In this document: positions 5,598-48,977 of the stretch, piece after piece
How positions within the stretch are numbered: position 1 is the stretch's first letter
Layout of the letters: the number at the start of each line of letters is the position of its first letter
Origin: Bacteroidota bacterium
GTDB taxonomy: Bacteria > Bacteroidota > Bacteroidia > AKYH767-A > OLB10
Direction of reading: 5' to 3'
DNA length: 64,000 nucleotides
Assembly (NCBI GenBank): GCA_016713445.1
Contig: JADJPB010000014.1
Span: 128,317 to 192,316 of the forward strand
Translations under genes and position numbers: made by a program
The notes under the pieces: generated by a model
Database searches by the model: none
Told to the model about the DNA's origin: nothing
The model's input: the letters and a program-made list of their open reading frames with translations, nothing else

Positions 5598-7399
5598 TTA
5601 TTCTAATGAATGGAATATTTCCTGAATGGAAATTTTGTTTTCTTCTAGAAGGATGATGTTTTTTTGAAAAATCGAAAGATTATCAAATAGATATACCTTA
5701 AAGTAGTTCTCGTAGTATTTTATACCTTCTAATAAATTGGTTTTAAATAATGAAAAGTATGATTTGCGTTTTTCAGTTAAATTGCTTCTGTTTTTTCGAA
5801 TTCTCTTTTGATGTAAGAGATATATAGTTCGAGTTCATTAATGAAAGCATGTGGCCTAAAAGTTTCATTTAATAATTGTGTTCTTCCATAAATATGATCA
5901 ACCATTTGCTTTAATGAAAAACTTCCTGAAAAATATGCGAGGTTTGGACCAGGACAAATAGTTACTGCTGTTAAATTATTTGAGGGTTTGTGATGATTTA
6001 CTATGAGTGCAGACGATCCCAGTCCAGAACAGAGACAGTCTTTTTCTGTGGCTTCCTGTATTTGATCTTTTAGCTCAATTTCATTGTAATAGTTTCTTGA
6101 AGTTGTTTTATTTTAAATGTTGATATTGTCTGGAAGCTGTGCAAATAATTTTTCTGTAAATTCTGTATTGTTCGTCAAAAATTTTTTTATAACAAGGACT
6201 TCCCTGGTTTGTTTTGTGATATTCTATGCTTTCTTTGTTTCTCTGAGCTACTTTCTTTAAAATTATTAAAGGGGACTCCTAATGGTGATGCATGACTAAT
6301 AAAGTAGTCCGATTTTTTGCTCTAATTAATTTTAATAAAGTTTCATTGTCAACATTAGTGGCTTCAGGTACCATTAAAAATGGACTTCCCCATCCAATAG
6401 CGTTGAGTTGATAATATTCCAGTAAGTTTTATGCTCTTCTGACGTACCTATTCCTCCCTGTGCTGTAATAGATAAGTGAGTGCTCGAAAGTAAAAGATAT
6501 TTTTCCTTTGCTAAAAGTGTTTTATTGCATTCGTTAAATAACTCTTGATAAAGGTCATCTCTTTTTTGTTTAAATTCTTCGAGTATTGGACCAAGAAGCA
6601 AACCATTGGAGACAAATGCATGACCTCCACAATTAATTCCTGATTCAATTCTGAATTCTGAAATCCAAAGCCCTTTTTTTGCAAGATATTTTCCTTGTAT
6701 TAATGCAGATCTATAATCACTTACTTTTAAAATTATTTTTTTCTTGATGAACCCATTTTCATTTGGATAAAAGTCTTTGAAGTTTTCACAATACGCGAAC
6801 AGACGTGGATTCAATCCTGCCGAGAAAACAATAGAGGAACATAATTCACTATTTGCATAGCCCCTTAATGCAGATAATGCATCTGAATACTCTTGAGGTA
6901 AAGCGTCTCCTGATTTTGTGAAATTTGGCTTGTCAAGTTTGGTCATGATGTTTACGTCAATTGACCCTGCTTTTATAAATGCTTTTAATTGGTCTTCTAT
7001 TGTTTTTTTCTGCTCCTTGCTTGTCTTTAATGAAAGGTAAAGAGATTTTAATAGCGAAGTATTGGACAACAATTCGAAATACTTATTGATATCTTCATCC
7101 TTGTCAAAATCTTCGTTTTTAAGTTTTGAACCTGTCGGTTCAATACTTTTTGAAGTAAATTCAAGTAGCTGGTTATTCTTTTCGCTCTTGAATCATCTTC
7201 TTTTACAGTTATTTTTTTCAAAAGGTATATTTTCTCTGGTAGAGATAATTTCACGCATTTGTTCCACAAGGTGATCTTCAATGATTGATACTACTGATGA
7301 AATCCCAAATTTGCCTACCTTAATTGGAGTGTCTATAGTGTATCCCAACCCCATAACTGGAATATGAAATGAGTGAAGTGGTGTGATGGGCATGGTCAA
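5598..7399 (-). pseudogene. Conserved hypothetical protein of about 600 aa, heavily frame-disrupted
   Basis: Pieces 7193-7399 (IPVMGLGYTIDTPIKVGKFGISSVVSI), 7048-7281 and 6374-7072 (..GINCGGHAF..) are followed by readable fragments down to a TAA at 5598-5600 (..EKDCLCSGLGSSAL..AVTICPGPNLAYFSG..). I do not recognise the family. Confidence 0.45.
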
Positions 7400-7952
7400 T
7401 TTAATTAATTATTAATCGGACAAAAATATCCGAATTAAACAATCTTGGACATGATAATAATCATGTTATCATTTAAAGCGTTTATTAGTAGGCTGAAATG
7501 AATTAGGTGTATTTGATTTAAACATATTAGAAGCAGTATAGTTAAAGGGGATTTCGTTGTGTTGTCTTCATCTCAATTTACTTGATACTACCTAATGAAA
7601 TATTCGAAAATTATTTAAAGAATATAATGTAGTCAGAAAAGTTCAACTAAACGCCAGTTGGTTTCTTGAGAAACTTTCTAATTGCCACGAAAGAATAATT
7701 CCTTTACATGTTAAATGAAATTTCTTAGCTTTTTTGTAAGTTTCATTTTTTGAAAGTCGAAGATTTTCAAATGATTTTAGAAAGGATTTATGCAAGTATG
7801 ATTTAGGACAAGTGAAAAAAATGGTTTTGTGATGTAATATAGAATTCGCAACATTAGAAAACTTCTAAGAAGGAGCGAGAGTTCGAAGTAAAGCAGTCCC
7901 CATAGCAATCGGGGCCGCCATTATTATGAGAATTTATTCTTTAATTGATCTA

Positions 7953-8207
7953 TCAACTCTGAAATTCTTTCAAATGTTGAATGTATTTCCTGCTCTTCAT
8001 TTTTTTGATATGCATCTCAATATTCCTAGCTTGCTGAAATAGTAGATCATCAATGGAAAGATATAAAATCCAATCATCAGTTTTTTGAGTAAAAGCTGAA
8101 CTAAAGAATTTGCTGTTGTGTTGATTTAATCTTTCCGAAAGATCTAAGCAACTTCCGACATAATATCGGTCAATTTTTGAGGAATAAAGAATGTATACAG
8201 ATGCCAT
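7953..8207 (-). CDS. Small GIY-YIG nuclease family protein (copy 1)
   Basis: 84-aa ORF MASVYILYSSKIDRYYVGSCLDLSERLNQHN...ARNIEMHIKKMKSRKYI, with the GIY..YVG..R..H..E pattern of stand-alone GIY-YIG (URI-domain) proteins. Confidence 0.8.
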   Translation of the reverse strand: MASVYILYSSKIDRYYVGSCLDLSERLNQHNSKFFSSAFTQKTDDWILYLSIDDLLFQQARNIEMHIKKMKSRKYIQHLKEFQS

Positions 8208-8353
8208 TTGAAAAATGATTTATATTAAATTTAGACGAATAGTCTGCTAATTGAATAAAAGCACATGCTTTCATGCATGTGAAAAAAGAAAAACAGAGAA
8301 AGTAACACCGCTCTCGCACTGTTTCTCTCCCGATAGCTATCGGGACTGTTTCG

Positions 8354-8473
8354 TACCCGGAGCCGGAGTCGTCCCGATAGCTATCGGGACGGCATGCCAG
8401 TGAAGGCACAGGTGTTTGATCGCGAAGCTTCGCGACAGCGCGTCTACCACCCCGATAGCAATCGGGGCCGCCA
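8354..8473 (-). pseudogene. tRNA-Leu(CAA)-derived relic lacking the 5' acceptor strand, with palindromes inserted in the D-loop, anticodon stem and T-loop
   Basis: The minus strand reads TGGCGG[CCCCGATTGCTATCGGGG]TGGTAGACGCGCTG[TCGCGAAGCTTCGCGA]TCAAACACCTGTGCCTTCACTGGCATGCCG[TCCCGATAGCTATCGGGA]CGACTCCGGCTCCGGGTA. Outside the brackets it is identical to the tRNA at 10965-11047. Confidence 0.85.
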
Positions 8474-8505
8474 TTATTATGAGAATTTATTCTTTAATTG
8501 ATCTA

Positions 8506-8760
8506 TCAACCTGGAAATTCTTTCAAATGTTGAATGTATTTCCTGCTCTTCATTTTTTTGATATGCATCTCAATATTCCTAGCTTGCTGAAATAGTAGAT
8601 CATCAATGGAAAGATATAAAATCCAATCATCAGTTTTTTGAGTAAAAGCTGAACTAAAGAATTTGCTGTTGTGTTGACTTAATCTTACTGAAAGATCTAA
8701 GCAACTACCGACATAATATCGGTCAATTTTTGAGGAATAAAGAATATATACAGATGCCAT
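8506..8760 (-). CDS. Small GIY-YIG nuclease family protein (copy 2)
   Basis: 84-aa ORF, near-identical to 7953-8207. Confidence 0.8.
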   Translation of the reverse strand: MASVYILYSSKIDRYYVGSCLDLSVRLSQHNSKFFSSAFTQKTDDWILYLSIDDLLFQQARNIEMHIKKMKSRKYIQHLKEFPG

Positions 8761-8906
8761 TTGAAAAATGATTTATGTTAAACTTAGACGAATAGTCTGC
8801 TAATTGAAAAAAAGCACATGCTTTTCATGCGTGTGAAAAAAGAAAAACAGAGAAAGTAACATCGCTCTCGCACTGTTTCTCTCCCGATAGCTATCGGGAC
8901 TGGGTC

Positions 8907-10964
8907 GTACCCGGAGCCGGAGTCGTAGCGAAGCCTCGCTACGGCATGCCAGAACAGTAATAACTTATTTTTTTATTTGGTTTAAAATTAAAAGAGGGGA
9001 GTAACACCGCTCTCGCACTGTTTCTCCCTCTGTTTTGTACCCGAGCCGGAGTCGTAGCGAAGCCTCGCTACGGCATGCCAGAACAGTAATAACTTATTTT
9101 TTTATTTGATTTAAAATTAAAAGAGGGAGTAACACCGCTCTCGCACTGTTACTCGCACTGTTTTGTACCCGGAGCCGGAGATCGTAGCGAAGCCTCGCTA
9201 CGGCATGCCAGAACAGTAATATCTTATTTTTTTATTTGATTTAAAATTAAAAGAGGGAGTAACACCGCTCTCGCACTGTTTCTCCCTCTGTTTTGTACCC
9301 GGAGCCGGAGATCGTAGCGAAGCCTCGCTACGGCATGCCAGAACAGTAATATCTTATTTTTTTATTTGATTTAAAATTAAAAGAGGGAGTAACACCGCTC
9401 TCGCACTGTTTCTCCCTCTGTTTTGTACCCGGAGCCGGAGTCGTAGCGAAGCCTCGCTACGGCATGCCAGAACAGTAATAACTTATTTTTTTATTTGATT
9501 TAAAATTAAAAGAGGGAGTAACACCGCACTCGCACTGTTTCTCCTCTGTTTTGTACCCGAGGCTGGAGTCGTAGCGAAGCCTCGCTACGGCATGCCAGAA
9601 CAGTAATAACTTATTTTTTATTTGATTTAAAATTAAAAGAGGGAGTAACACCGCTCTCGCACTGTTTCTCCCTCTGTTTTGTACCCGAGCCGGAGTCGTA
9701 GCGAAGCCTCGCTACGGCATGCCAGAACAGTAATAACTTATTTTTTTATTTGATTTGGGATTAAAAGAGGGAGTAACACCGCTCTCGCACTGTTTCTCCC
9801 TCTGTTTTGTACCTGGAGCCGGAGTCGTAGCGAAGCCTCGCTACGGCATGCCAGAACAGTAATAACTTATTTTTTATTTGATTTAAAATTAAAAGAGGGA
9901 GTAACACCGCCCTCGCACTGTTTCCCCCTCTGTTTTGTACCCCGAGCCGGAGTCGTAGCGAAGCCTCGCTACGGCATGCCAGAACAGTAATAACTTATTT
10001 TTTTATTTGATTTAAAATTAAAAGAGGGAGTAACACCGCTCTCGCACTGTTTCTCCCTCTGTTTTGTACCGGAGCCGGAGTCGTAGCGAAGCCTCGCTAC
10101 GGCATGCCAGAACAGTAATAACTTATTTTTTTATTTGATTTAAAATTAAAAGAGGGAGTAACACCGCTCTCGCAATGTTTCTCCCTCTGTTTTGTACCTG
10201 AGCCGGAGTCGTAGCGAAGCCCCTCGCTACGGCATGCCAGAACAGTAATATCTTATTTTTTTATTTGATTTAAAATTAAAATAGGGAGTAACACCGCTCT
10301 CGCACTGTTTCTCCCTCTGTTTTGTACCCGGAGCCGGAGTCGTAGCGAAGCCTCGCTACGGCATGCCAGAACAGTAATAACTTATTTTTTTATTTGATTT
10401 AGATTAAAAGAGGGAGTAACACCGCTCTCGCACTGTTTCTCCCTCTGTTTTGTACCTGAGCCGGAGTCGTAGCGAAGCCTCGCTACGGCATGCCAGAACA
10501 GTAATAACTTATTTTTTATTTGATTTAAATTAAAAGAGGGAGTAACACCGCTCTCGCACTGTTTCTCCCTCTGTTTTGTACCCGGAGCCGGAGTCGTAGC
10601 GAAGCCTCGCTACGGCATGCCAGAACAGTAATAACTTATTTTTTTATTTGATTTAAAATTAAAAGAGGGAGTAACACCGCTCTCGCACTGTTTCTCCCTC
10701 TGTTTTGTACCCGGAGCCGGAGATCGTAGCGAAGCCTCGCTACGGCATGCCAGAACATTAATATCTTATTTTTTTATTTGATTTAAGATTAAAAGAGGGA
10801 GTAACACCGCTCTCGCACTGTTTCTCCCTCTGTTTTGTACCGGAGCCGGGAGATCGTAGCGAAGCCTCGCTACGGCATGCCAGAACAGTAATATCTTATT
10901 TTTTATTTGATTTTAATTAAAAGAGGGAGTAACACCGCTTCGCACTGTTTCTCCCCTCTGTTTT
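8907..10964 (-). repeat. Tandem array, 16 units of 126-130 bp, each = tRNA-Leu trailer hairpin + AT-rich spacer + tRNA-Leu 3' fragment with a palindrome in the T-loop
   Basis: The anchor 'gtac' (tRNA 3' end) recurs at 8907, 9037, 9165, 9295, 9425, 9553, 9681, 9809, 9937, 10066, 10194, 10324, 10452, 10578, 10707 and 10837. The next period is the tRNA itself (3' end 10965). Confidence 0.95.
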
Positions 10965-11047
10965 TACCCGAGCCGGAGTCGAACCGGCATGCCAGTGAAG
11001 GCACAGGTGTTTGAGACCAGCGCGTCTACCAATTCCGCCATCCGGGC
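10965..11047 (-). tRNA. tRNA-Leu, anticodon CAA (long variable arm)
   Basis: Minus strand: GCCCGGA TG GCGG AATTGGTAGA CGCG CTGGT CTCAAAC ACCTG TGCCTTCACTGGCAT GCCGG TTCGACT CCGGC TCGGGT A. The D-arm is identical to E. coli tRNA-Leu. Caveats: one U-U mismatch in the anticodon stem, and the 3' acceptor strand as sequenced is one C short (TCGGGT versus TCCGGGT in many array units, which pairs fully with G1-U72). No CCA is encoded. Confidence 0.65.
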
Positions 11048-11298
11048 ATTAACTTTAGAGGCCAAACTCTTTTTTTTAGCCATTCTTTTCCTGAACCGCT
11101 TTTAAGTTGTTTTTCTCTTTTCCTTGCTTCTGCTCTTGTTGAATAATGTTCAACTAAGATTAGATCGAAAGGTTGATAAGGTTTGGTAGTTTTTTCCTTA
11201 CCATGATTATGTTGAGATACTCTCACATCAACATTTTGTGTCAAACCTACATAAATGTAGCTTCTGATTTTACTAGATATTACATATACAAAGAACAT
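11026..11298 (-). CDS. Small GIY-YIG nuclease family protein (divergent copy 3); 3' end overlaps the tRNA-Leu gene
   Basis: 90-aa ORF MFFVYVISSKIRSYIYVGLTQNVDVRVSQHNHGK...RAEARKREKQLKSGSGKEWLKK. Its last 7 codons and TAG stop (11026-11028) lie inside tRNA positions 1-22. Confidence 0.8.
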   Translation of the reverse strand: MFFVYVISSKIRSYIYVGLTQNVDVRVSQHNHGKEKTTKPYQPFDLILVEHYSTRAEARKREKQLKSGSGKEWLKKRVWPLKLMPGWRNW

Positions 11299-11311
11299 TC
11301 ATCCTTACTCT

Positions 11312-11365
11312 AGACCAGCGCGCCTGCCTGCCGGCAGGCAGGTCTACCAATTCCGCCATCCGGGC
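11312..11365 (-). pseudogene. Duplicated 5' half of tRNA-Leu (through U33), interrupted by a 20-nt perfect palindrome
   Basis: Minus strand: GCCCGGATGGCGGAATTGGTAGA[CCTGCCTGCCGGCAGGCAGG]CGCGCTGGTCT, then AGAGTAAGGATGA-ATG (GIY-YIG start). Outside the bracket it matches the first 34 nt of the tRNA at 11014-11047. Confidence 0.85.
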
Positions 11366-11571
11366 AATTTTAATATTAAAATAGAAATCATTGAATTTTA
11401 AGAACTTACGATTCTGCTAGTTGAACCGGCAGGCAAAAATACACCCTTTTTCGACAAGCAGAGCGCAAAAGTATAAAAACTCTTCATTTTTCAACACCTA
11501 TTTGTTAAATTCATTTTGATAAAGCGTTATTTTTTAGTTTCTTTGCAGCCCTTTTAAAAGAAGGAAAACCA

Positions 11572-12503
11572 ATGGCTAGGCAGGTAAAAATATTCTCCGG
11601 AACAACCTCAAAATATCTCGCAGAACAAATCGCAGATTGTTACGGCTCGCCGCTTGGCGATGTGAAAGTGGCGCGCTTTAGCGATGGTGAGTTTTCTCCG
11701 TCTTTTGATGAAAGTGTCCGAGGTTGTGACGTTTTATTATCCAAAGCACCTTTTCGCCAACTGATAATTTATTCGAATTGTTGATGTTGATTGATGCGGC
11801 TAAAGAGCATCAGCACATTACATTACAGCTGTAATTCCTTATTTTGGATATGCTCGCAGTGATCGTAAGGATAAACCAAGGGTCGCTATTGCATCTAAAA
11901 TGGTAGCTAATTTATTGGTGGCTGCAAGGTGTAACTCGTGTGATGACTATGGACCTCCATGCTCCTCAAATTCAAGGCTTTTTTGATGTTCCTGTGGATC
12001 ATATGGATGCTTCAGCCATTTTCGTCCCTTATATTAAGAGTTTGGATCTTCCTAATATGATGATTTGTGCTCCCGATATGGGTGGCGTTCATAGAGCTCG
12101 TACTTATGCTTCTTATTTTAGTGCAGATATGGCTGTAATTGATAAGCATCGTAAACGCGCAAATGAAATCGAAGGAATGCAAGTGATAGGAGATGTATCT
12201 GGTCGTGATTGTATTTTGGTTGATGATATCGTGGATACTGCAGGTACGTTGACCAAAGCCGCAAGTTTGCTGGTAGAAAAAGGCAGCAAGCGTGCGTGCT
12301 TTTGTACCCATCCCGTCTTAAGCGGAAAAGCTTATGAACGTATCGCCGATTCTAACTTGACAGAACTTGTAGTATGTGACACTATCCCGTTGATAAAACC
12401 AGGAAATAAAATTAAACAATTACCAACCGCCGCATTATTCGCAAAAGCCATTCAAAGAGTGTACTCTTACGAGTCTATTAGTTCACTTTTTGTAAAAGCA
12501 TAA
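11572..12503 (+). CDS. prs: Ribose-phosphate pyrophosphokinase (three frame switches between ~11745 and ~11935 as sequenced)
   Basis: [26 protein letters not shown].. plus ..[33 protein letters not shown]... The gap region reads [22 protein letters not shown] / [26 protein letters not shown] / [12 protein letters not shown] in shifting frames, and each shift sits at a short T or A run. Confidence 0.9.
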
Positions 12504-28255: not shown

Positions 28256-28449
28256 AGAGTCCAGAATCTAAAATTGGACACGAGGTACAATTATTTTAAT
28301 AGCCTAGATGTTTTCCAATCCTTCAACTCACCAATTTGCCATCGCGAAGCCTCGCGAAACCAATTTGCCAATTCGTATGTAAACGCTTATAGTCGACTAT
28401 AAACGTTTATCTCCCGAGTAATTAGTTCATCCTTCCCTATCCTTGCATC

Positions 28450-31282: not shown

Positions 31283-31475
31283 ATTTCGTTACATCTAATT
31301 TTCGGCCCGCATCAGCATTACGTGTATTGCAAATTGGCAAATTGGTGTATTGGTGAATTGCTGCGCTTTGTTTTCGTGATCGCGTCCATTTTTTCGAATT
31401 TTCGCATTTTCGTGCCTGCCTACCGAAGCTTGCGCCACCGCTTTAGTTTTAGCGCACGCGGTTAGCATAGGTAGG

Positions 31476-31790
31476 TTCATTCGCATTTCGCGTCAAGAGA
31501 TTTTAGTAAATTCGTAAATTCGCGTATTCGTATCGCGAAGCCTCGCGACGTACTTTCGTATCGATTCGTTCCCTATAGTTATCGGGATCGCCTTCATTTT
31601 TTTCGCATTTTCGTGTTCATTCGCATTTCGCGTCAAGAGATTTTAGTAAATTCGTAAATTCGCGTATTCGTATCGCGAAGCCTCGCGACGTACTTTCGTA
31701 TCGATTCGCTCCCAATAGCTATCGGGATCTCGTTCATTTTTTCGCATTTTCGCATTTTCGTGTTCATTCGCATTTCGCGTCTGTACGATT
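31476..31790 (+). repeat. About 2.3 tandem copies of a 137-bp unit rich in TTCG motifs, each carrying two palindromes
   Basis: gttcattcgcatttcgcgtcaagagattttagtaaattcgtaaattcgcgtattcgtatcgcgaagcctcgcgacgtactttcgtatcgattcg... recurs at 31476 and 31613, with a partial third copy from ~31762. Confidence 0.85.
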
Positions 31791-48820: not shown

Positions 48821-48889
48821 TTTTTTTGATTGTTTTTACGCAATTAATTATTTTAAATATTATTACTATCCCCGCTTTTGTGTGCTTTT

Positions 48890-48977
48890 AGCTTCTAGCT
48901 TCTGGCTTCTGGCTTCTAGCTAGCTTCTAGCTTCTAGCTTCAAGCTTCTAGCTTCTGGCTATTAGCTTCTAGCTTCT
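48890..48977. repeat. Heptanucleotide tandem repeat (AGCTTCT/GGCTTCT, about 12 units)
   Basis: agcttctagcttctggcttctggcttctagctagcttctagcttctagcttcaagcttctagcttctggctattagcttctagcttct. A partial inverted copy (gctagaagccagcagccagcagc) lies at 49063-49093. Confidence 0.9.

Follow-up and report, generated by a model that had tools for sequence, protein, structure and literature searches.

Why would a gene for a nuclease of some 80 amino acids (aa) stand directly beside an intact tRNA-Leu gene, with a second, split copy of the 5' part of the same tRNA on its other flank? The arrangement is found in a 64,000-nt stretch of contig JADJPB010000014.1 from a Bacteroidota bacterium (GCA_016713445.1; positions 128,317-192,316 of the forward strand), a stretch that is here called the window and whose own numbering is used throughout. 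The gene, here referred to as GIY-1, encodes a protein of the GIY-YIG nuclease superfamily. The reading that we favor, with moderate confidence, is that the locus represents a selfish cassette of wide distribution, in which a GIY-YIG gene for about 80 aa sits inside a partial tandem duplication of tRNA-Leu and would be maintained by break-induced recombination within tRNA sequence.

The minigene and the split tRNA copy

The locus is made up of the following features, all of them stranded features of the minus strand except the palindrome.

10964-11048 (ARAGORN) or 10965-11047 (Rfam, 38.3 bits), minus strand: intact tRNA-Leu(CAA)
11055-11298, minus strand: GIY-1 minigene, 80 aa if the A8 run at 11070-11077 is read as A7; Pfam PF01541
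11312-11322, minus strand: redundant copy of tRNA-Leu positions 24-34 (3' strand of the D stem and 5' strand of the anticodon stem, through U33), with 11/11 identity to 11014-11024
11323-11342, no strand: palindrome P, perfect, 20 nt, CCTGCCTGCCGGCAGGCAGG, inserted at the 3' edge of the redundant fragment's D loop
11343-11365, minus strand: redundant copy of tRNA-Leu positions 1-23 (5' strand of the acceptor stem, 5' strand of the D stem, and D loop), an exact 23- to 25-nt repeat of 11025-11047

The first-pass annotation of this DNA had described a duplicated tRNA 5' part split by a 20-nt perfect palindrome, and the coordinates, together with the exact matches of 11 and 23 nt, bear that description out. 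Identity with the tRNA ends after U33, the ATG of the GIY-1 open reading frame (ORF) follows 13 nt further on, and the unique DNA between the two tRNA copies amounts to 264 bp with a single ORF. An Rfam gathering scan of the window returned no RNA family besides the tRNA, and no terminator-like site was seen between the tRNA fragment and the intact tRNA. P occurs once in the 64 kb, the number expected from shuffled sequence being zero.

As written in the window, the GIY-1 ORF is 90 aa long (11026-11298) and runs into the tRNA, from which the first-pass annotation had concluded that RNase P would cut the mRNA upstream of its stop codon. An exact sequence look-up of the 90-aa product found no record. 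The 80-aa protein P0001, which is on record, is 100% identical to the window ORF across the first 76 residues, and the same gene, at 100% nucleotide identity and with A7 in place of A8, is present in L002-L005, four short-read contigs that are independent of one another and stem from different samples. On the A7 reading the protein ends in ...KKEFGL and its stop codon lies 7 nt upstream of the tRNA. Because four independent contigs have A7 and the GIY-1 homologues are 76-82 aa long, we doubt the 90-aa reading; the overlap between ORF and tRNA in the window is most probably a 1-nt homopolymer error, with the caveat that the ORF runs into the tRNA before its stop in eight other loci, and the RNase P argument falls with it. 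Similar irregularities are seen elsewhere in the window. The prs gene is split between two frames (frameshift at 11733-11754), the two minigenes of a second GIY-YIG family (GIY-2a and GIY-2b) have different 1-nt deletions (at ~8500-8510 and ~7950-7960) relative to a 98%-identical 94-aa protein (P0121), and the acceptor 3' strand of the tRNA-Leu(CAA) is without one C that is present in six other contigs (site ~10968-10972). The window looks like an unpolished long-read assembly, and its 1-nt indels mean that the ORF ends in it are not to be trusted.

The assignment of GIY-1 to the GIY-YIG superfamily, also made in the first-pass annotation, is firm: the protein matches PF01541 with 64.7 bits (E=1e-17; cutoff, 22.6). 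Seven residues (Y5, Y16, V17, G18, R26, H30, and E62) are invariant across 38 GIY-1 homologues, so that the catalytic residues are kept, and the catalytic domain spans residues 1-71 of the 80. In a profile search of solved structures, the matches were to the UPF0213 proteins 1zg2 (E=6.4e-8) and 1ywl (E=1.3e-7) and to Slx1 (7cq2; E=1.5e-3). By these profiles, the GIY-1 protein is a bare, single-domain catalytic unit of the Slx1/UPF0213 (YhbQ-like) kind, rather than a homing endonuclease of the I-TevI/Seg type, which was rejected with a score of 16.7 bits for TIGR01453, the model of group I intron endonucleases, against a cutoff of 56.05 and with no C-terminal DNA-binding module. The UPF0213 proteins (YhbQ, BH0048, and EF2693) and Slx1 are the closest relatives with solved structures and have the same catalytic core and small size in common with GIY-1, whereas Slx1 works together with Slx4 on branched DNA in eukaryotes. 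To our knowledge, UPF0213 proteins have not been linked to tRNA genes or palindromes. A PHROG scan of GIY-1 gave no match, a PADLOC scan for known anti-phage defense gave no family at E<=0.01, and a scan of IMG/VR gave three weak matches only; given this near-absence from IMG/VR, a phage vector is not supported.

Recurrence, empty sites, and cognate palindromes

Is the locus an isolated accident? A scan of species-representative genomes with an alignment of GIY-1 homologues yielded 80 loci with identities of 56-70%, the best scoring of at least 545 relatives. They belong to Bacteroidota, many Patescibacteria lineages, Balneolales, Ignavibacteria, Omnitrophota, and metagenome-assembled genomes (MAGs) labeled Planctomycetales or Gammaproteobacteria. 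A same-strand tRNA-Leu directly adjoins the minigene in 73 of the 80, with all five Leu anticodons represented, and several of the seven loci without one stop at a contig edge. Two arrangements recur. In type A, GIY-1 is followed by tRNA-Leu, with the stop codon 0-20 nt before tRNA position 1; in the mirror form, type B, tRNA-Leu is followed by GIY-1 and then by a 3' fragment. The opposite flank of the minigene is nearly always a fragment of the same tRNA. The canonical map, found in about 50 of 82 loci, is P, 12-35 nt, GIY-1, 5-20 nt, and tRNA-Leu, its mirror being tRNA, GIY-1, and P. The first-pass annotation had pointed to further GIY-YIG copies with half-tRNA duplications as something to look for, and such copies are thus present at tRNA-Leu genes.

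The boundaries and sequences of the fragments bear on where they came from. Type A 5' fragments end anywhere within t26-t46, and type B 3' fragments start anywhere within t5-t57. The fragments match the local isoacceptor on both sides of the palindrome, despite acceptor stems that differ widely between loci; they would therefore be local duplicates, or be held identical by gene conversion, and would not have been imported with the cassette. By the same token, P was ruled out as the left end of an element that carries pieces of a donor tRNA, since both flanks of P, including the anticodon stem, match the local isoacceptor. The first-pass annotation had the cassette bring its own tRNA 5' half and insert exactly at the anticodon loop, between positions 33 and 34, and had named a variable boundary as evidence that would count against it. 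Within the window the identity does end after U33, but elsewhere the boundary moves over t26-t46, and the idea of an imported half does not agree with the local matches.

The top matches to the window GIY-1 among species-representative genomes include Saccharibacteria (70%) and members of other phyla on a level with Bacteroidota. Because matches in other phyla are as close as those in Bacteroidota, these identities point to horizontal spread of GIY-1. Tandem units of minigene plus tRNA fragment occur in L003/L004, L173, L093, and L214 and, for the second family, at 7953-8760 of the window.

One Bacteroidia MAG (L006) shares the pth-L25-prs neighborhood of the window and the order of fragment with P, GIY-1, and tRNA-Leu(CAA). 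Protein identity between the two is 72% for L25, 64% for pth, and 89% for prs, and P is identical at 20 of 20 positions. Position 7 co-varies between the fragment and the tRNA gene, both copies having A in the window and G in L006; to judge from this co-variation, fragment and gene evolve in concert. The L006 fragment runs beyond U33 and includes the CAA anticodon. For GIY-1 itself, the comparison of the window with L006 (82% identity; dS, 1.3; dN/dS, 0.11) indicates purifying selection. L006 also holds four further tRNA-Leu 5' fragments (5761-6342), of which three precede P and one separates GIY-1 from the tRNA. Every one of the four has a hairpin of 30-35 nt in its D loop; the hairpin sequences differ, one example being TCTCGTCACATCAAAACAAGTTTGATGCGACGAGA.

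The neighboring prs protein was used for a metagenome scan, which returned 80 orthologous loci. L132, whose prs is 95% identical to that of L006, and L138 (82%) have a tRNA-Leu(CAA) identical to that of the window upstream of prs, with no GIY gene, fragment, or P, and at least 12 more prs loci are also without the cassette. The window and L132 can be aligned over the ~95 intergenic nt nearest to prs, which confirms the orthology of the empty site. The cassette is thus polymorphic for presence and absence at an otherwise conserved site, as judged from these alignments, and the cassette-free tRNA-Leu(CAA) genes for which the first-pass annotation had proposed a comparison of relatives exist at the orthologous prs locus.

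Two contigs of the same species as L006 (L130 and L131, with prs 100% identical to that of L006) have a differently organized tRNA locus, in which the tRNA is followed by a GIY-2-type ORF and then by a tRNA copy that bears four hairpins. L131 has P and L130 lacks it, an exact 20-nt indel at GGTAGA|CGCG without target duplication; otherwise the two differ by 1 substitution in 262 nt. The pseudo-tRNA of these contigs is a mosaic, with a 5' part and an acceptor 3' strand of the L006 type and a variable arm and T stem of the window type. From its sequence, we take this mosaic to be the footprint of recombination between heterologous tRNA-Leu(CAA) alleles.

P or a close variant splits the tRNA fragment in most GIY-1 loci and is the most conserved noncoding part of the architecture, which is difficult to square with the suggestion that the palindrome was an incidental later insertion. 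With the alignment register normalized, all of the ~55 P insertions in tRNA copies are confined to loops, namely the D loop (its start, interior, or end), the beginning of the anticodon loop, or the T loop; the stems have none. Some fragments carry two copies of P, and in L065 one P lies at the center of another. A common variant of P (CCTGCCTGTCGGCAGACAGG with its reverse complement) is not compensatory when examined for RNA-hairpin covariation. One locus without a GIY gene, L209 (2742-2830), has a tRNA-Leu 5' fragment with a P variant, and an intact tRNA-Leu(CAA) follows 65 nt downstream; either the cassette has decayed there, or fragment and palindrome can arise without a nuclease in cis.

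The second minigene family, to which GIY-2a and GIY-2b of the window belong (32.9 and 35.2 bits against PF01541, respectively, both above the Pfam threshold), is accompanied by a palindrome of its own.

8882-8899, 8372-8389, and 8328-8345, no strand: palindrome Q, 18 nt, TCCCGATAGCTATCGGGA, cognate of the GIY-2 family

Six further GIY-2 loci, picked solely for having long contigs, all (6/6) show a tRNA (Leu-UAA, Leu-CAA, once Asn), then GIY-2, then a tRNA 3' fragment that is split in the T loop by Q. P lies near 60 of 89 GIY-1 ORFs and 1 of 11 GIY-2 ORFs (Fisher p=3e-4), while Q lies near 1 of 89 GIY-1 ORFs and 10 of 11 GIY-2 ORFs (Fisher p=7e-12). By these counts, the pairing of palindrome with nuclease family is specific.

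Exact P was also found in 35 IMG/VR stretches, mostly with no GIY gene or tRNA nearby. Viral P sites were not enriched in predicted hairpin loops (14/58, against 33% of controls). Among the viral contigs, L096 (position 8616) and L119 (2284) have a tRNA-Met that ARAGORN recognizes even with P in its variable loop, in L126 (515) the D loop of a tRNA-Lys-like fragment is interrupted by P and a GIY ORF follows after 27 nt, and in L128 (3916-4125) P forms an array of 10 tandem 21-nt units.

Possible origins of the cassette

How might such an arrangement arise and persist? Under the reading that we favor, the cassette would be co-oriented with the tRNA in the same transcription unit and laid out as redundant piece, minigene, and intact tRNA, or the mirror of this, the redundant piece being a copy of the local tRNA in which the family's cognate palindrome (P or Q) interrupts a loop. 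The nuclease would break DNA at or near the palindrome or the tRNA loops, and homologous repair of the break would use the highly conserved tRNA sequence as its homology. Such repair could make and maintain the partial and tandem duplications, keep fragment and gene identical, and copy the cassette into cassette-free tRNA-Leu alleles, also across lineages. Survival would be limited to products in which one intact copy of the essential tRNA is left. The palindrome would mark or inactivate the redundant copy and is probably the site that the nuclease binds or cuts. Of the first-pass annotation, the general notion of a compact nuclease cassette tied to a regenerated intact tRNA fits this behavior.

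By analogy, the nearest experimental precedent is phage SegB, a GIY-YIG enzyme that is encoded next to tRNA genes and cleaves within tRNA genes of the phage's own genome; it thereby drives the tandem amplification of segB with tRNA, which for SegB has been shown to depend on catalytic activity and on recombination (PMC13096335). SegB and the other Seg-type enzymes of T-even phages (PMC2330249; PMC13096335) have in common with the present cassettes a GIY-YIG gene among tRNA genes, tandem units of nuclease and tRNA, and, as we infer here, selfish inheritance. SegB-like tandem units with a nuclease gene and tRNA sequence are represented by the four tandem loci named above (L003/L004, L173, L093, and L214), by the 553-nt duplication of GIY-2a and GIY-2b, and by an array of 128-nt units in the window. 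SegB differs in being ~220 aa long, having a DNA-binding region, being phage-borne, and showing no isotype preference, whereas the cassettes described here have an 80-aa Slx1/UPF0213 domain, lie in cellular genomes, adjoin nearly only tRNA-Leu, and come with a partial tRNA duplication and a cognate palindrome. They would thus be a cellular counterpart to the SegB-driven amplification of tRNA genes in phages. A literature search, with subscription-only literature outside its reach, returned no published description of this architecture. If correct, the favored reading would explain the many small ORFs annotated as "GIY-YIG nuclease family protein" that adjoin tRNA-Leu in Bacteroidota and the Candidate Phyla Radiation (Patescibacteria), and it suggests that tRNA sequence, which is among the most conserved DNA, can serve as universal homology arms for a 0.3-kb selfish cassette across phyla. 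On the practical side, it flags instability of tRNA loci, assembly breaks, pseudo-tRNAs missed by tRNA finders, and ORF calls that enter tRNA genes.

Several points weigh against break-induced recombination as the cause. The 80 GIY-1 loci, being the best of at least 545 relatives, are not phylogenetically independent. Near-identical cassettes in different tRNA contexts, which would be a sign of recent transposition, were not found; only tandem copies and same-strain contigs were. At the window locus the cassette appears to be old (GIY-1, 82% against 64-89% for the flanks, at a dS of 1.3), and long vertical residence is also compatible with a host function. An 80-aa catalytic domain without a DNA-binding module is unlikely to recognize a long site alone, and its closest characterized relatives are structure specific, not sequence specific. 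The choice of target raises difficulties either way: were the target in the tRNA gene, the regenerated intact tRNA would still be cleavable, and were it P, the cut would fall in the donor and not in the empty allele, which is not classical homing.

Might the palindromes themselves be the mobile units? This alternative, which resembles the relationship between REP/REPIN sequences and RAYTs, holds that P (20 nt) and Q (18 nt) are mobile and that each is mobilized in trans by its own mini GIY-YIG nuclease, which inserts it where folded DNA presents single-stranded loops. An essential tRNA could bear such hits only if a duplicated copy received them, so that hairpin-bearing fragments would accumulate as survivors around the nuclease gene. 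We regard it as unlikely, though by no means negligible. The family-specific pairing of nuclease and palindrome agrees with it, as do the clean P indel without target duplication between L130 and L131, the confinement of ~55 P insertions to D, anticodon, or T loops and never stems, the nesting of P at the center of another P in L065, the presence of several hairpins per pseudo-tRNA (8353-8474 of the window; L131), the P copies dispersed over 35 viral stretches without a nearby nuclease gene, and the L209 locus, where fragment and P occur but no GIY gene does. Slx1-type enzymes cut where single-stranded DNA meets duplex, a preference that would also suit such insertion. Against it stand the single P in 64 kb of this genome, the lack of enrichment of viral P sites in predicted hairpin loops, and the joining reaction that it demands; we know of no GIY-YIG enzyme that joins DNA. 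Nor does insertion of palindromes by itself account for the precise place of the nuclease gene between the tRNA pieces or for the preference for tRNA-Leu.

The comparison with REP/REPIN and RAYTs is close in part. Both appear to involve a single nuclease gene flanked by its own family-specific palindrome, which also occurs elsewhere and is probably recognized in its hairpin form. RAYTs, however, are HUH/Y1 transposases, whereas the only palindrome-associated protein here is GIY-YIG, and REPs are intergenic and number hundreds per genome, in contrast to one P per 64 kb and to palindromes that lie in the loops of tRNA copies. Dispersal of the REP/RAYT kind is seen for P in viral contigs, yet not in the window, with its one copy. 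Fungal mitochondria have mobile GC-rich palindromic clusters and double-hairpin elements. These palindromes (cf. PMC7218506) likewise are very short, behave like indels in AT-rich DNA, are mutually nested, and co-occur with homing-endonuclease genes, but they are organellar, have no demonstrated cognate nuclease, and do not target tRNA loops. We put forward tentatively, as a reading with a substantial chance of being right, that the GIY-YIG genes and their cognate palindromes could constitute a new class of mobile system made up of nuclease and palindrome, in which the palindromes are inserted without target duplication into the single-stranded loops of tRNA-gene cloverleaves or into the tip of another palindrome, the nuclease mobilizes them, and the duplicated tRNA-Leu provides a safe harbor as well as universal homology across phyla. 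The two natural pairs, each of an 80- to 95-aa nuclease and a short perfect palindrome, might be the smallest site- or structure-specific nuclease systems known.

Could the nuclease instead serve the host? A long-resident, host-useful nuclease might be co-transcribed with tRNA-Leu, the palindrome being an mRNA-stabilizing hairpin or an autoregulatory binding site. The strong purifying selection and the synteny between the window and L006 are in keeping with this, and so are the strict co-orientation with the tRNA, the lack of a terminator between fragment and tRNA, and the distance of ~24 nt by which P precedes the start codon in most type A loci. It has also been noted that Slx1-like GIY-YIG domains occur fused to a TrmH-like tRNA methyltransferase (PMC1564403). 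Nevertheless, close relatives with an identical tRNA do without the cassette, and the regulatory geometry is not fixed: in type B loci P follows the ORF, as the palindrome does in the GIY-2 family. Conservation of P at 20 of 20 positions across phyla is more than a simple hairpin needs, and tandem copies, pseudo-copies, and mosaics speak for conflict and instability rather than for a housekeeping operon. Domestication of this kind therefore seems quite improbable to us.

A single insertion between U33 and C34 of a cassette that carried its own tRNA positions 1-33, with an unrelated palindrome arriving later, as the first-pass annotation had it, accounts for the end of identity after U33 and for an ORF that starts 13 nt further on in the window. 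We consider it very improbable, given the t26-t46 spread of boundaries, the anticodon within the syntenic L006 fragment, fragments that always match the local isoacceptor despite diverse acceptor stems, a conserved and family-specific palindrome, and a mirror form that duplicates the tRNA 3' part.

An ordinary cause is barely credible: tRNA-Leu genes are classical integration sites, the cyanobacterial tRNA-Leu(UAA) hosts a group I intron, and the window does contain sequencing indels, but an integrase att remnant, a degenerate group I intron, a chance local duplication, or an assembly artifact would all have to contend with the lack of an integrase or a ribozyme (Rfam finds the tRNA only, and the 264 bp hold one ORF), with duplication of the tRNA 5' portion and not its 3' end, with the same structure in independent short-read assemblies and MAGs, and with recurrence in at least 70 loci. 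Two of these candidates were rejected individually, the group I intron because the Rfam scan of the window showed no ribozyme core between exons and an uninterrupted tRNA is present, and an integrase-type element because the unique 264 bp hold one 80-aa ORF and GIY-1 duplicates the tRNA 5' portion. A riboswitch was likewise discarded, as Rfam returned the tRNA only. The intron of tRNA-Leu(UAA), together with intron GIY-YIG endonucleases, does have in common with this locus the tRNA-Leu, a break near the anticodon loop (in the window), and the GIY-YIG superfamily; there, however, a ribozyme interrupts the tRNA, whereas here there is no ribozyme, the tRNA is duplicated, and the nuclease belongs to a different branch. 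Bacteroides NBU1 integrates at the 3' end of tRNA-Leu. Such tRNA-targeting integrative elements similarly have a tRNA(-Leu) target, make a direct tRNA repeat, and leave an intact gene, but they use a tyrosine integrase, duplicate 10-50 nt of the 3' end, and are kilobases long, as opposed to a 264-bp insert without a recombinase in which either tRNA half may be duplicated.

The surrounding nest

The window cassette is one edge of a 3.5-kb nest of related sequences (7898-11434), whose other features, with a motif just beyond it, are as follows.

8907-10981, minus strand: tandem array of 16.1 units of 128 nt (TRF, 95% matches; repeat search)
8506-8760, minus strand: GIY-2a minigene of the second GIY-YIG family, truncated by a 1-nt deletion; full protein 94 aa (P0121, 98% identical)
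8353-8474, minus strand: nearly complete pseudo-copy of tRNA-Leu(CAA); palindromic hairpins at 8450-8467 (D loop), 8420-8435 (anticodon loop), and 8372-8389 (T loop; this one is Q)
7953-8207, minus strand: GIY-2b minigene, second unit of a 553-nt tandem duplication with GIY-2a
7898-7921, minus strand: truncated start of another hairpin-bearing tRNA copy, at the end of the nest
11419-11434, minus strand: degenerate T-arm-like remnant, GCCTGCCGGTTCAACT, compared with GCATGCCGGTTCGACT in the tRNA (repeat search, 88% identity)
11466-11473, minus strand: TACTTTTG, candidate promoter motif (string match only), ~100 nt upstream of the tRNA fragment

TACTTTTG fits TAnnTTTG, which we take to be the Bacteroidetes -7 promoter motif; as a promoter of the whole unit of fragment, GIY-1, and tRNA it is a possible but weak candidate, based on the string match.

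Downstream of the tRNA, the order on the minus strand is the array, Q, GIY-2a, the pseudo-tRNA, Q (8328-8345), GIY-2b, and the truncated tRNA copy. The duplication units of GIY-2a and GIY-2b are identical at 450 of 466 positions. Each array unit consists of the tRNA 3' part, with the hairpin GTAGCGAGGCTTCGCTAC in its T loop, and the terminator-like sequence that follows the tRNA; 15 copies of GTAGCGAGGCTTCGCTAC are exact. The short-read contig L002 passes from the tRNA directly to the sequence past the 128-nt array, and thus the array is absent or collapsed there.

Elsewhere in the window, at 31475-31781, a 140-nt repeat of 2.1 copies has hairpins of the TCGCGAAGCCTCGCGA and CCCAATAGCTATCGGGA types, and GCGAAGCCTCGC also occurs at 28344, so that the same hairpin families exist outside the tRNA nest. 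At 48884-48977, the window has 14 copies of the 7-nt repeat GCTTCTA.

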